DNA of 64,000 nucleotides. It comes from an uncultured Chitinophaga sp. (GTDB taxonomy: Bacteria; Bacteroidota; Bacteroidia; Chitinophagales; Chitinophagaceae). How positions within the stretch are numbered: the first letter of the stretch is position 1; each line of letters opens with the position of its first letter. Shown one piece after another: positions 58,267 to 62,889 of the stretch. The translations under genes were made by a program, and so were the position numbers. Below the pieces are notes generated by a model, which made no database searches, was not told where the DNA came from, and saw nothing but the letters and a program-made list of their open reading frames with translations. The stretch is taken from positions 3,532 through 67,531 of the forward strand of contig CAZNUR010000003.1 in assembly GCA_964576375.1 (NCBI GenBank), read 5' to 3'.

Positions 58267-59934
58267 TTATTGCCCCTGTCGGGAATTTCCTCCGCGACCA
58301 CCAGAATTAGCATCATTCATTCTAATGCGGCGTCCCTTGAAATTTTTTCCATCAATAGCCTTAATAAACTTTCCAGCTACCCTGGAATCCACCTCAACCC
58401 AACTATTCATCTCGCGTAAATCAATTTTTCCCAAAACATCTTTTCTTTGTTCGCTCATATCCAAAAGAAACTGTAAAAAGCTGGCTTTATAAAAACCGTC
58501 TTTTGTTCCCAGGTTGATAAACAACCGTTGGTAAGAAGCGTCGCCTTGTGGCACCGAACCTTGTTCCTGCTTCCTTTTCTTTCCTACTCTAGCATCCGTA
58601 GATTGCTGTCTAAGGTTCAGATCAGCTGCATTCTCGTAATACCGTAAAAAGCGATCAAACTCCAAGGCAGCCACGCGCTGTAAAATTTCCTCTTTACTAA
58701 CCGCTGAAAATTTTTCAGCGAGCATAGGAATATAGGTTTCGTACTCCCCATGACTGATATCTGCTTTTAACAACCTGTCGGTGAAATGGAAAAACTGTTT
58801 TCTACAAACGTCTTTTCCACTAGGAATATCCATGCGATGAAAACGCGTCTGGATCAATTTTTCTATCTGCTTCAACCGGTAGGCTTCACGGGGTGTCACA
58901 ATGGAGACGCATAAACCACTCTTGCCAGCTCGTCCTGTTCTACCGCTACGATGCGTATAAACTTCTGTATCGTCAGGCAATTCGTAATTAATAACGTGCG
59001 TGATACCCTGCACATCAATACCTCTTGCAGCAACATCTGTGGCAACTAGCAATCGAATATTTCGCGTTCTAAATGCACCCATCACACGGTCACGCTGTGC
59101 TTGGGTTAGATCCCCATGGATAGCATCTATGTCATAGCCCTCGCGGGTGAGTTTTTCTGCAATTTCCTGTGCATCTGCTTTGGTGCGAGCAAAGACAATT
59201 CCAAAAATATCAGGGTTAAAATCAATGATCCGCTTCAAGACCTCATAGCGGTAAGGGTGCTGACACTGATAATACTGGTGATCAATATTTACGTTTGCGG
59301 CGTTCATTTTACCGATAGTTACTTCGGTAGGCTCATGCATGTAACGCTTGCTAACTTGTCTGATTTCAGTAGGCATAGTTGCACTGAATAACCAGGTGCT
59401 TTCCCTTTTTGGTGTATTCTGAAGGATAAACTCGATATCTTCCTGAAATCCCATGTTGAGCATTTCGTCAGCCTCATCCAATACCACATACTCTATTTGA
59501 TCGAGCCGAATAGCTTTTCTTTCTATCAAATCAATCAGCCGACCAGGGGTAGCCACGACCACGTGGGTACCTCGCTTAAGGTCCTTCACCTGTGCCCCAA
59601 TAGAGGCTCCTCCGTATACAGGGGTTACCAGCACCTGCCCGGTAATGCCTTGAAATTTTTTAATATCTGAGGTAATCTGAAGACATAGCTCACGAGTGGG
59701 GCAAATTACCAATGCCTGCGGATTTGTTCGTGACCTGTCCAACAAATCAAGTAATGGAAGTCCAAAGGCAGCCGTTTTACCGGTACCTGTTTGTGCTAAA
59801 CCAATAAAATCACGTGTTCCTTGTAAAAGAATGGGAATTGCCTTTTGCTGTATGGGCGTGGGTTCTGTAAACCCAAGTTTCTGAATAGACTGCAAAAGGG
59901 GGGCGCTCAGTCCTAGCGCTTGAAAAGTGTGCAT
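58267..59934 (-). CDS. DEAD-box RNA helicase, CsdA/DeaD-like with DbpA RNA-binding domain (likely start 59934)
   Basis: AQTGTGKT, PTREL, DEAD, SAT, HRSGRTGR, RLFINLG. Confidence 0.95.
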   Translation of the reverse strand: MHTFQALGLSAPLLQSIQKLGFTEPTPIQQKAIPILLQGTRDFIGLAQTGTGKTAAFGLPLLDLLDRSRTNPQALVICPTRELCLQITSDIKKFQGITGQVLVTPVYGGASIGAQVKDLKRGTHVVVATPGRLIDLIERKAIRLDQIEYVVLDEADEMLNMGFQEDIEFILQNTPKRESTWLFSATMPTEIRQVSKRYMHEPTEVTIGKMNAANVNIDHQYYQCQHPYRYEVLKRIIDFNPDIFGIVFARTKADAQEIAEKLTREGYDIDAIHGDLTQAQRDRVMGAFRTRNIRLLVATDVAARGIDVQGITHVINYELPDDTEVYTHRSGRTGRAGKSGLCVSIVTPREAYRLKQIEKLIQTRFHRMDIPSGKDVCRKQFFHFTDRLLKADISHGEYETYIPMLAEKFSAVSKEEILQRVAALEFDRFLRYYENAADLNLRQQSTDARVGKKRKQEQGSVPQGDASYQRLFINLGTKDGFYKASFLQFLLDMSEQRKDVLGKIDLREMNSWVEVDSRVAGKFIKAIDGKNFKGRRIRMNDANSGGRGGNSRQGQ

Positions 59935-59949
59935 GGATAAATTTGAATG

Positions 59950-59979
59950 AAAAAAGAAAGCCGTTCCCGGGGGAACGGC
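59950..59979 (-). terminator. Intrinsic terminator after the small lipoprotein gene
   Basis: Minus strand GCCGTTCC-CCCG-GGAACGGC followed by TTTCTTTTTT. Confidence 0.85.
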
Positions 59980-60003
59980 CTTCGGCAATTACTTGCACTT
60001 GAA

Positions 60004-60183
60004 TTACTTAGCTGTTGTGTCAGCAGCAGGAGCTGTTGTGTCAGCAGCAGCAGTTGTGTCAACTACAGCAGCAGTTGTGTCAACAGTTGCAGCAGTTGTG
60101 TCAGCAGCAGGAGTAGCTTCTCCACCACCATTACATGCTACCAAAGTAGCAGCGATGAAGGCAATTGCAAAAAACTTTTTCAT
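60004..60183 (-). CDS. Small Ala/Thr/Asp-repeat lipoprotein, 59 aa (absent from the ORF track)
   Basis: Translates as MKKFFAIAFIAATLVAC-NGGGEATPAADTTAATVDTTAAVVDTTAAADTTAPAADTTAK; lipobox LVAC, A-rich leader, own terminator. Confidence 0.9.
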   Translation of the reverse strand: MKKFFAIAFIAATLVACNGGGEATPAADTTAATVDTTAAVVDTTAAADTTAPAADTTAK

Positions 60184-60224
60184 TGCTTTTGTTTTTTTTG
60201 TTTTGTGAAATATTTCGCGAATTT

Positions 60225-60250
60225 ATACCCTTTTTTGCAAAAGGTAACCC
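60225..60250 (-). promoter_or_regulatory. Candidate ECF sigma promoter GGGTTAC-N15-GTAT facing the lipoprotein gene
   Basis: Minus strand GGGTTAC cttttgcaaaaaagg GTAT; same motif and spacing as the copy on the plus strand. Confidence 0.6.
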
Positions 60251-60282: not shown

Positions 60283-60308
60283 GGGTTACTATTTTTAAAA
60301 TTCCGTAT
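60283..60308 (+). promoter_or_regulatory. Candidate autoregulatory ECF promoter GGGTTAC-N15-GTAT facing the sigma gene
   Basis: GGGTTAC tatttttaaaattcc GTAT, ending 16 nt before the GTG start. Confidence 0.6.
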
Positions 60309-60324
60309 TAAACAATCGAGGATA

Positions 60325-60900
60325 GTGAATAGCGAACTTCAGGAGGTTGGACTTTTAAAGGGTTTGGCAGCAGGCGACCGAAAAATCATAGAAGGGATCT
60401 ACAAAGACCACTTTAATATGATACAGTCACTGATTGTCAATAACAATGGCTCTTCAGATGATGCCCGGGACATTTTTCAAGAAGCCATGGTTGTGCTTTA
60501 TGAAAAGGTCAGAACAGGTTCATTTGAACTGAATTGCCAGTTAAAAACCTACCTCTATTCTGTGAGTAAACGATTGTGGTTAAAGCGATTACAACAAAAT
60601 AATCGACTTTTTACTCAAGAGATAGATCTTGAAACCACCGTGCCGGTTGACGAGGAAATTGCTATTCACGAGAAAAGAGATGCGGAATTTGAATTAATGA
60701 GTCAGGCCATCCAACGTCTGGGAGAACCATGCAAAAGTCTTTTGGAAGCCTACTATTTAAGAAAAATGAACATGCAAGACATTGCGCTTCAATTTGGCTA
60801 CACCAATTCGGATAATGCAAAAAACCAGAAGTATAAATGTCTGATGCGGTTAAAAAAACTTTTTTTCTCTGAATATAAAAACAGCAATACCCATGGATGA
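60325..60900 (+). CDS. ECF-type RNA polymerase sigma factor (GTG start)
   Basis: Region 2 DARDIFQEA...LKTYLYSV; region 4 HTH MQDIALQFGY...AKNQKYKCL. Confidence 0.93.
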   Translation: MNSELQEVGLLKGLAAGDRKIIEGIYKDHFNMIQSLIVNNNGSSDDARDIFQEAMVVLYEKVRTGSFELNCQLKTYLYSVSKRLWLKRLQQNNRLFTQEIDLETTVPVDEEIAIHEKRDAEFELMSQAIQRLGEPCKSLLEAYYLRKMNMQDIALQFGYTNSDNAKNQKYKCLMRLKKLFFSEYKNSNTHG

Positions 60901-61996
60901 TTTGAGGCTATTGGATGCAGTTGAAAGATATATCAAGGGTGAAATGCACCCAGACGAACGCGTGCAGTTTGAACAGTTGCGCAAAACCAATGCAGAAGTA
61001 GACCAACTAGTTGTTGAACATACTTTTTTCCTTCAAAAAATGAATCGCTTTGGAGAATGGAAACGATTCAAATCACTTCTCAATGAAATACATGTTGACC
61101 TAGCCGAGCAAGGACAAATCAATTCAGCTCGCTTACAAGGGAAAGCAAAAGTTATCTACCTCTGGAATAGATATAAGAGAGTGAGTGCCATTGCTGCTTC
61201 GATTGCCGTAATCACCACCCTGGTAATTTCCTCATTGGTTTGGATTATTGCGCCAGCATCTCCACGCTCGCAATTCGAAGAGCTAAATAAAAAGTTTAGC
61301 CAGCTAGAGGACAAGACAAGAAAACAAGCCAAAGAAATTGATCGAATAAAAAATAAAGCCACTTCTGTACCACAGGATATCCCATTCACTACTGGAGGTA
61401 CCGGTTTTATTATTGATGCGCGCGGCTATCTGGTGACCAATGCACACGTGGTGGAAGACGCAAAACAAATTGCCATTCAAAATAATCGTGGAGAGTATCT
61501 TGTTAATGTAGTTTTTCAAGATGTAGAAAGGGATATAGCTATATTAAAAATTGAGGACGAAAACTTCAAACCATATACCAGCCTTCCCTATGGACTCAGC
61601 AAGCAAACTGCAAAAATAGCCGAGCCTATTTTTACGTTAGGTTATCCCAGAAACGAAGTAGTATATAGCCAAGGTTACTTGAGCGCAAGAACTGGATTCA
61701 ATGGTGATACACTCAGCTGCCAAATAGAAATTAATGCCAACCGTGGTAACAGCGGAAGTCCTATTCTAAATAGAAAAGGCGAAGTCATTGGAATTCTGAA
61801 TGGGCGTCAAACCAACACCCAAGGTTTTGCCTTTGCCGTACAAAGCAAATACATCTTTGATGTGATTGAAACATTGAGAAAAGAAAAAGATAGCCCTACC
61901 ATCCGCATACCATCCCGTTCGTTATTAAATGGACTTGACCGTACTGAGCAAGTTCGAAAAGTACAAGACTACGTTTACATGGTAAAGGTGAACTAA
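60893..61996 (+). CDS. Membrane-anchored trypsin-like (S1C) serine protease with anti-sigma-like N-terminus
   Basis: ERYIKGEMHPDERVQFE anti-sigma-like helix, one TM segment, coiled coil, GTGF / TNAHVV / DIAILK / GNSGSP triad, no PDZ domain; 8-nt overlap with the sigma gene. Confidence 0.85.
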   Translation: MDDLRLLDAVERYIKGEMHPDERVQFEQLRKTNAEVDQLVVEHTFFLQKMNRFGEWKRFKSLLNEIHVDLAEQGQINSARLQGKAKVIYLWNRYKRVSAIAASIAVITTLVISSLVWIIAPASPRSQFEELNKKFSQLEDKTRKQAKEIDRIKNKATSVPQDIPFTTGGTGFIIDARGYLVTNAHVVEDAKQIAIQNNRGEYLVNVVFQDVERDIAILKIEDENFKPYTSLPYGLSKQTAKIAEPIFTLGYPRNEVVYSQGYLSARTGFNGDTLSCQIEINANRGNSGSPILNRKGEVIGILNGRQTNTQGFAFAVQSKYIFDVIETLRKEKDSPTIRIPSRSLLNGLDRTEQVRKVQDYVYMVKVN

Positions 61997-62889
61997 TTCC
62001 AAAGTTTATTCGGATACTCTCCTGCAGTAATTAAACGCTCAAGACTTTCCTGAACAAATGGAGCATCCTCTTTGTAGGTAACCCCGAACCAAGAGGACTG
62101 TGTGGGTACAATTTTTACCTTACCTCCCTGCTGTATAAACTGATCGGCAACCAACGGAATAAAAAACTCCGATTTCAATTCCTGTCCAGCATGCTGTAAA
62201 AAGCTTGCAAACTGGGTTGCGGTTATATCAAAAAATGTAGTAGCAAAGCACCAAAAGTTCATGGATACTTTTGTGTCTTCCCCAAGCGTGTCTGGAATTA
62301 AACCGTCTTGACAGGTAATAACGCCATTTACACGAGCTATATTGATACGCTCCGTTATGCTGGCTAAATCACCTGCATTATTTAACTGACATACTCCTCG
62401 GTTGACCGTGCCATGCTCAGAAAGCGTAGCAGTAAGATCATACCCCACAATTCCATAAGTATGTTCATTACAATCAACCTGCAAAAAACGAACAGCTTGC
62501 TCAAAGGCATTGCGACCATAGAAATCATCAGCATTAATTACTGCAAATGGCTCTTTCACCACATCTCTGGCACAAAGAACTGCATGGGCTGTGCCCCAAG
62601 GCTTAGAGCGATCAGCAGGGAATATATAGCCTTGTGTAAACGAATCCAATTCTTGAAACACATATTCCGTTTTGATCAAGCCCTTTAACTTAGGCTCAAA
62701 TATGGATTGAAACTGCGAAGCATACTGGGCACGAATAATGAATACTACTTTTCCAAAACCAGCTCGGATAGCATCAAAGATTGAGTAATCCATAATGGTT
62801 TCACCAGCAGGACCAAAAGACTGGACCTGTTTCATACTTCCATAGCGGGAGGCCATGCCTGCAGCAAGGATTACCAAGGTTGGTTTCAT
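61993..62889 (-). CDS. Sugar-phosphate nucleotidyltransferase family protein
   Basis: LAAGMASRYG, KPWGTAHA, INADDFYG; TAATTTTG box at 62908-62915. Confidence 0.9.
   Translation of the reverse strand: MKPTLVILAAGMASRYGSMKQVQSFGPAGETIMDYSIFDAIRAGFGKVVFIIRAQYASQFQSIFEPKLKGLIKTEYVFQELDSFTQGYIFPADRSKPWGTAHAVLCARDVVKEPFAVINADDFYGRNAFEQAVRFLQVDCNEHTYGIVGYDLTATLSEHGTVNRGVCQLNNAGDLASITERINIARVNGVITCQDGLIPDTLGEDTKVSMNFWCFATTFFDITATQFASFLQHAGQELKSEFFIPLVADQFIQQGGKVKIVPTQSSWFGVTYKEDAPFVQESLERLITAGEYPNKLWN

Follow-up and report, generated by a model that had tools for sequence, protein, structure and literature searches.

Can an anti-sigma factor carry the protease that starts its own destruction? The question is raised by a pair of genes in a 64,000-nucleotide stretch of DNA from an uncultured Chitinophaga sp. 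(contig CAZNUR010000003.1 of assembly GCA_964576375.1, positions 3,532 to 67,531); this whole stretch is the window, and all coordinates below are positions in it. The first gene of the pair encodes an extracytoplasmic function (ECF) sigma factor, and the second, which we call the partner gene, encodes a membrane protein with a trypsin-fold protease domain. A reading made from the sequence alone had proposed that the two genes are a self-contained module in which the partner is sensor, anti-sigma factor and site-1 protease, the enzyme of the first periplasmic cut, in one polypeptide. Our analysis indicates that the pair is a real, widespread and unannotated variation on the ECF/anti-sigma theme, and that the anti-sigma role of the partner is well supported in silico by models of the complex and of the fold.

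The N-terminal domain of the partner and its sigma factor

The sigma protein matches Sigma70_r2 in Pfam (E 1.6e-7), with a weak match to region 4 (E 0.14), and scores 64.8 bits with TIGR02937 (sigma70-ECF), for which the cut-off is 42.9. A profile of its orthologs finds the solved structures of AlgU, SigW and RpoE. With sigma2 and sigma4 as its only domains, a length of about 190 aa and a score above the family cut-off, it is an ECF (group 4) sigma factor. The orthologs are 43-72% identical, and their region 4 is almost invariant. The sigma and partner open reading frames (ORFs) share the 8 bases ATGGATGA (60893-60900), and the 8-nt overlap with the sigma stop described in the sequence-only reading is borne out by both the ORFs and the raw sequence.

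Full-length homologues of the partner, about 367 aa long and 60-94% identical to it, numbered more than 120 in a first protein search; where they are named, they are annotated just as 'serine protease', 'S1C' or 'trypsin-like'. Named records with full-length orthologs come from Mucilaginibacter, Pedobacter, Sphingobacterium and metagenome-assembled genomes (MAGs) of Chitinophagaceae/Chitinophagales. We searched a sample of 400 genomes of the phylum for matches reaching the N-terminal region of the partner, and found them in 21/21 genomes of the source's family, 7/7 of a second family and 2/2 of a third, with none outside these three families among the matches listed. From inferred names, the three families are Chitinophagaceae, Sphingobacteriaceae and Hymenobacteraceae, and the Hymenobacter form has a diverged N-terminus. 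Linkage to the sigma gene, which the earlier reading had left to a survey of relatives, is conserved: a sigma ortholog lies directly upstream of the partner, on the same strand, in all 29 loci from the three families, with a gap of -8 to +18 nt in 27 of them and of 44 or 84 nt in the remaining two. The partner gene therefore has the position that defines genes for class I anti-sigma domains (ASDs), adjoining its ECF sigma gene, here with the 8-nt overlap and in the 29 loci alike. Presence of the pair in every sampled genome of three families, and also in the small source assembly, argues for a core function. The source assembly has 1.5 Mb at 85% completeness, against 2.0-4.0 Mb for genomes of the same genus, and has kept four ECF-size sigma genes. 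Short 'stand-alone' N-domain proteins turned up in a search of 1.84 billion proteins, but they look like truncated or frameshifted ORFs and we rejected them as a natural protease-less form.

The evidence that the N-terminal domain binds the sigma factor comes first of all from modelling the two together. The predicted complex of the sigma factor with partner residues 1-95 has an ipSAE of 0.82, while the best of three controls reached 0.08, so that the pairing proposed in the sequence-only reading is supported by the model. The pass mark that we used is reached by 58 of 80 solved complexes and by 2 of 110 mismatched pairs. The prediction runs are consistent, with at least 96% of contacts in common, and the pLDDT of the partner is at least 79. 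Predicted contacts involve sigma residues 17-63 (sigma2, including the conserved stretch at about 48-59) and 118-181, where sigma4 comprises 144-181, and a long partner helix (49-70) sits on sigma2, which is the class I arrangement. The modelled domain would thus bind both sigma2 and sigma4, as class I ASDs do.

The fold of the domain points in the same direction. An AlphaFold2 model of the partner on an alignment of 30 orthologs (mean pLDDT 82.6) places N-terminal helices at residues 3-15, 20-32 and 34-72, and there is no cysteine in residues 1-95 and hence no HxxxCxxC motif, which sets the domain apart from the zinc-binding anti-sigma (ZAS) domains; a helical N-domain without zinc ligands, as originally described, is what we see. 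Modelled in isolation, the N-domain has a pLDDT of 90.6. We compared it with VIA-align, without a prefilter, to 48,161 representative chains, and the first three ranks went to RsiW (Z 6.5), MucA (Z 6.4, rmsd 2.7 over 53 residues) and RslA (Z 5.8), all of them matches to cytoplasmic anti-sigma domains solved with their ECF sigma factors. PupR, RseA and RskA follow at ranks 7, 8 and 11, and anti-sigma domains make up six of the top 11. The only Pfam family that recurs in the N-domains of the orthologs is zf-HC2, an anti-sigma N-terminal family, which matches weakly in 7/30 (best E 0.004).

Several results weigh against an anti-sigma assignment or do not bear it out. The Z scores of the anti-sigma folds (4.7-6.5) are below the level at which the tool is safe for helical models, so it is the ranking and not the score that carries the fold argument. 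The N-domain of the source protein has no Pfam match at E<=10, and a profile of the domain found no anti-sigma factor among the sequences in the Protein Data Bank (PDB). In addition, sigma/anti-sigma complexes are among the solved structures, and the success of the predicted complex may partly reflect likeness to those, although in sequence the partner shows no detectable similarity to any solved anti-sigma factor. Foldseek returned nothing for the N-domain model at E<=0.001, with RslA at E 4, and a feature search of the ESM Atlas with residues 1-125 gave scores that were all under 0.9, which we treat as leads only. The PDB profile search also matched PPAR ligand-binding domains (E 4e-4), which we rejected as a helical coincidence.

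If the N-domain were not an anti-sigma domain, the partner could be an inner-membrane quality-control protease that merely shares an operon with the sigma gene, as mucD does with algU. The lack of a significant family match for residues 1-95 of the source protein would suit this explanation, as would the databases, which label the homologues as serine proteases only. We nevertheless consider it highly unlikely, given that the complex prediction passes by a wide margin, that anti-sigma domains take so many of the leading fold ranks (6 of the top 11), that in 29/29 loci the partner gene stands where an anti-sigma gene would, translationally coupled, and that the two-gene operon holds no other anti-sigma candidate. 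On the strength of these models, we believe that the N-domain is very probably the cognate anti-sigma domain of the sigma factor.

A PDZ-less protease on a periplasmic stalk

The features of the partner and of its surroundings are collected in Table 1. A single transmembrane (TM) helix had been read from the sequence, and the AlphaFold2 model agrees, with a hydrophobic core in which A101 and A102 are invariant. A patch of RYKR on the N-terminal side of this core predicts an N-in topology, with the N-terminus in the cytoplasm. The short coiled coil said to follow the membrane helix fared less well: a helix is predicted there with moderate confidence, whereas its coiled-coil character is suggested just by a weak TolA_bind_tri match (E 0.096). 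Between the TM helix and the protease only one residue is strongly conserved, Leu131 (codon 61283-61285), which is invariant in the 30 orthologs and present in 95% of 150 homologues.

Pfam places Trypsin_2 over residues 169-301 of the partner (E 2.3e-24) and no PDZ family at E<=1, in agreement with the earlier description of a trypsin-fold protease without a PDZ domain. The codons given there for the catalytic His (61445) and Ser (61751) are at the right coordinates, and the triad of His185, Asp214 and Ser287 is intact and unchanged in 30/30 orthologs and 150/150 homologues. The domain has the chymotrypsin fold, the His-Asp-Ser triad and the GNSGG-type motif of the HtrA family, but not the C-terminal PDZ domain, of which members of that family have at least one. 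In Foldseek, it matches DegP, DegS, HtrA1 and MucD of the MucA operon at E of about 1e-12 with 28-34% identity. NCBIfam hits to the protease region came from the Do, DegS, DegP and MarP models, all far below their cut-offs: the two DegS equivalog models, TIGR02038 and NF008147, give 71.8 against 422.95 bits and 67.1 against 408 bits, and the MarP model NF033740, over residues 126-332, gives 73.7 bits (E 1.4e-20) against a cut-off of 250. Matches from the defence-system search tool PADLOC (RT-Protease_XI, LmuA and HamA) were generic to the trypsin domain and left the sigma factor unmatched, and we do not regard the locus as a defence system.

Where a PDZ domain would be expected, the partner has a C-terminal tail of 38 residues in which R350 and Q353 are nearly invariant among the 30 orthologs. 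Relatives of 375-600 aa, secreted or lipoproteins, in which the N-terminal region differs and a sigma neighbour is missing, end in the same tail, so it belongs to a protease subfamily and is not peculiar to the sigma-linked proteins. From these comparisons, there is a PDZ-less protease subfamily in Bacteroidota, and the putative anti-sigma fusion is one of its architectures. The tail of this S1C subfamily ends in a (D/N)(F/Y)(V/T)xxIxV-like strand. In the relatives, the protease follows a signal peptide and an unannotated N-terminal region of 150-390 aa, and the trypsin domain is all that Pfam names. In a quick tree, all 30 sigma-linked protease domains fall on one side of a branch with an SH-aLRT of 83, which is not strong; this fits a single fusion event and does not prove one.

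Table 1. Features of the sigma/partner locus, with positions in the window
Feature	Position	Strand	Description	Basis or remark
Small lipoprotein gene	60004..60183	-	59 aa, signal peptide with lipobox Cys, five D-T-T sequons	
Divergent ECF-type promoter	60222..60250	-	GGGTTAC (60250-60244), N15, GTATAAA (60228-60222)	Faces lipoprotein gene
Sigma-facing ECF-type promoter	60283..60311	+	GGGTTAC (60283-60289), N15, GTATTAA (60305-60311)	Ends 13 nt before sigma GTG
ECF sigma gene	60325..60900	+	191 aa, GTG start	ECF (group 4) sigma factor
Partner gene	60893..61996	+	367 aa, ATG start	
Putative cytoplasmic zinc-free anti-sigma domain	60893..61108	+	Residues 1-72; cytoplasmic part to about residue 95	Predicted complex, fold ranking
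Single TM helix	61181..61252	+	Residues 97-120 (hydrophobic core)	AlphaFold2 helix within 84-119
Predicted periplasmic helical stalk	61265..61360	+	Residues 125-156	AlphaFold2 helix, pLDDT 55-77, moderate confidence
PDZ-less HtrA-like S1C protease domain	61391..61879	+	Residues 167-329	Pfam, NCBIfam, Foldseek
Catalytic codons	61445-61447, 61532-61534, 61751-61753	+	His185, Asp214, Ser287	
C-terminal tail	61880..61993	+	Residues 330-367; helix 350-358, strand 361-366	pLDDT 85-95

Back-to-back promoters and the divergent lipoprotein gene

The strict pattern GGGTTAC-N15/16-GTAT[TA]AA has exactly two matches in the source assembly (1.5 Mb, 85% complete), and they lie back to back at this locus, one facing the sigma gene and the other facing the gene for a small lipoprotein. 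Upstream of sigma, GGGTTAC is found in 30/30 loci and nearly always has GTAT or a near match N15-16 further on; the inverted copy is also present in most of the 30 orthologous loci. Each of 25 further genomes from the family has 0-3 strict matches, nearly all of which precede the sigma ortholog or the small lipoprotein gene; a reversed control pattern gives almost none. We rejected looser promoter patterns as a guide to the regulon, given that their 4-6 extra hits are about what chance would yield from 142 GGGTTAC sites.

The divergent lipoprotein gene is itself conserved, with products of 51-93 aa in 29/30 loci and at least two D-[ST]-[AILVMT] sequons in 27/30, and Pfam has no family for it. 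With the lipoprotein kept in 29/30 loci under the same motif, the conserved unit is one of three genes. A self-contained two-gene module is therefore only partly right: the linkage between sigma and partner stands (29/29), while full self-containment does not. The predicted regulon would comprise the sigma operon and the lipoprotein gene, as its sole target outside the operon, and would not be a broad envelope-stress regulon.

Some further observations concern the motif and the neighbouring genes. ORFs of 96 and 201 aa, in two genomes, likewise have the strict motif in front of them and may be extra members of the regulon; their N-termini look CBM48 or glycogen-binding-like. In seven loci of the second, Sphingobacteriaceae-like family, two or three copies of the repeat lipoprotein gene stand in tandem upstream of sigma, and most of those loci have a GGGTTAC-type motif before one copy or more. 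In the window, a strong terminator-like hairpin (59956-59983, - strand; 12 pairs, 7 of them GC, with a T-run) lies just downstream of the lipoprotein gene and parts it from a DEAD-box helicase gene (58267-59988). On the other side, the partner stop overlaps by 4 nt (61993-61996) a convergent gene (61993-62889, - strand), a 298-aa ORF without a family assignment, and no terminator-like site was found between the two.

At the homologous position, GTG was chosen as the start of the sigma gene in 24/29 orthologs, as it was in the window itself (60325-60327), and it lies only about 3-16 nt past the -10-like GTATTAA, so that the leader is very short and has a weak GGA purine patch at most. The short leader and the GTG start may keep the ratio of sigma to anti-sigma low.

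These features bear on whether proteolysis is needed at all. The anti-sigma factor could be released without its own proteolysis, with the protease processing the lipoprotein or other targets and sigma activity being set by a conformational signal through the membrane helix or by stoichiometry, the latter through translational coupling combined with the weak GTG start of sigma. The frequency of the GTG start (24/29 orthologs and the source), the rule of overlapping or abutting genes, and a regulon that is very small and closed would all be consistent with this. On the other hand, the genome encodes an RseP-type M50 site-2 protease (PF02163, 180.6 bits, 467-aa frame), and among the single-pass ECF anti-sigma factors examined to date, inactivation by proteolysis is the usual case. 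Moreover, a stalk that carries a large periplasmic domain is the classic design by which RseP is held off until that domain has gone, as shown for DdvA of Myxococcus xanthus (PMC11506125). We regard release without proteolysis as unlikely.

Release of the sigma factor and its relation to known systems

Our tentative first choice, to which we give less than even confidence, is that the partner is the single-pass cognate anti-sigma factor of the sigma factor and that its own PDZ-less HtrA-type protease makes the site-1 cut, in trans within an oligomer. The zinc-free cytoplasmic N-domain would clamp sigma2 and sigma4, and release would occur by regulated intramembrane proteolysis. The protease domain of the partner would cut in the stalk or linker; HtrA proteases are trimers, so such a self-cut would most likely be made in trans within the oligomer. 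Next, the membrane helix would be cut by the RseP homologue, leaving a stub for cytoplasmic proteases to clear. The freed sigma factor would transcribe from the back-to-back GGGTTAC-N15-GTAT promoters both its own operon and the gene for the lipoprotein with D-T-T repeats. The protease activity, the self-cleavage, the trigger and the order of the cuts are all inferred. The invariance of the triad argues that catalysis matters, and Leu131 may be where the protease cuts or docks; a newly exposed hydrophobic C-terminus is what RseP favours, and Leu131 would fit that preference.

Three points count against self-cleavage. Leu131 is at the membrane-proximal end of a helix of about 32 residues, a long way from the protease if the stalk neither bends nor unfolds. 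With no PDZ domain as a gate, the protease must be kept in some other way from destroying itself constantly; the lipoprotein is the first candidate for such a restraint, although we offer this as speculation. Finally, the protease-plus-tail module is found in secreted proteins without a sigma neighbour, so the protease has a life outside signalling.

There is another explanation, which we rank close behind self-cleavage in trans and consider possible, if less probable. The partner may be an anti-sigma factor that uses its protease as a sensor or effector, binding or degrading periplasmic substrates (unfolded proteins, for example, or the disordered lipoprotein that is regulated with it), with the substrate load altering its conformation or occupancy. 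The site-1 cut would be made by a separate protease, for example a two-PDZ HtrA or a Prc/Ctp-type enzyme; alternatively, the protease of the regulon would itself be the brake, and the fusion would serve negative feedback. A canonical HtrA with two PDZ domains is indeed present in the genome, and the protease-plus-tail subfamily functions without a sigma partner in other proteins. The sole conserved extra member of the regulon is a small, A/V/T-rich and probably disordered lipoprotein, and such a protein is a plausible substrate for HtrA enzymes given their general specificity. Proteases are also known on the output side of related systems, as degP and mucD are outputs of the sigmaE and AlgU regulons (PMC8103513). 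The invariance of the triad in 150/150 homologues does not separate the two explanations, as it suits self-cleavage equally. Against a separate site-1 enzyme, we found no linked candidate within the flanks of about 0.5-1.5 kb at the 30 loci, and the strict regulon contains no other protease.

A bolder form of self-cleavage would close the system on itself. Here the three genes would be a closed sensory loop, and the lipoprotein would gate the site-1 activity of the partner, which would be the first anti-sigma factor to cut itself with an enzymatic protease domain of the serine type. The lipoprotein, probably O-glycosylated, could occupy the active site and so block self-cleavage in trans. If this were true, the cell would measure and restore the amount or glycosylation state of a surface lipoprotein. 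We think this rather unlikely.

The closest known arrangements are RpoE-RseA-DegS-RseP of Escherichia coli and AlgU-MucA-AlgW-MucP of Pseudomonas aeruginosa. The sigma factor is RpoE/AlgU-like, the partner is a predicted single-pass zinc-free anti-sigma factor whose modelled cytoplasmic domain has MucA and RseA among its best-ranked fold matches, its site-1-type protease domain has the HtrA fold and is closest to DegS and DegP, and the genome has an RseP homologue. By analogy, the system would work like RseA fused to DegS. The differences are substantial: protease and anti-sigma factor are one polypeptide here, unlike RseA-DegS and MucA-AlgW; in contrast to DegS there is no PDZ domain, so a gate operated by the C-terminal peptides of outer-membrane proteins cannot exist; no RseB/MucB gene is present; and the predicted regulon consists of two promoters instead of a broad envelope-stress response. 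MarP (Rv3671c) is likewise a PDZ-less periplasmic S1 protease tethered to the inner membrane. It differs in having four TM helices, and is not known to carry an anti-sigma domain or to be coupled to a sigma gene.

For a protease-type domain on an anti-sigma factor, the nearest parallel is DdvA of the DdvA-DdvS pair of M. xanthus, and the likeness is functional and not one of homology. DdvA is a TM anti-sigma factor with a periplasmic CHAT protease-fold domain on a flexible linker, and truncations have shown experimentally that RseP acts only after the bulky periplasmic domain is removed (PMC11506125). Autoproteolysis in trans as the site-1 step was proposed by its authors, who had not validated it and noted that it 'would be unprecedented' (PMC11506125). 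The periplasmic part of DdvA is a TPR-CHAT region of about 900 residues (a caspase-like Cys protease) with an incomplete active site, and the protein has a zinc-binding ASD, is a dimer and controls a CBASS-CRISPR island (PMC11506125). In the partner, by comparison, we have a serine protease of about 200 residues with a complete triad, a predicted zinc-free ASD and a small lipoprotein as output, and Pfam detects trypsin-type families only and no TPR-CHAT. In the RsgI (SEAL domain) and FecR/FoxR types, as far as the cited accounts describe them, the anti-sigma factor itself provides the first periplasmic cut before RseP (PMC10328401, PMC8144685, PMC12036975), through non-enzymatic constitutive rearrangements in a small domain as summarised in PMC11506125. 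The partner differs from these in that its protease domain is that of a full enzyme, and Pfam detected no FecR or SEA-like family on it.

In the literature that we searched, which did not cover the supplement of the ECF reclassification, we found no description of a fusion between an anti-sigma factor and a trypsin or HtrA serine protease. The statement that no characterised example is known therefore holds for that literature, while the concept does have an unvalidated precedent in DdvA (PMC11506125). Published surveys detect a class I anti-sigma partner for only about 6% of the ECF sigma factors of Bacteroidetes, and list the RpoE-like ECF03 group without one (PMC7406223). The family described here shows one place where the missing anti-sigma partners of Bacteroidetes hide, under the annotation 'serine protease'. 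It is also a compact test case for an anti-sigma factor that carries its own site-1 protease, so far proposed only for DdvA, and a clean one because there is a single catalytic serine, a very specific promoter and a predicted regulon of one lipoprotein.

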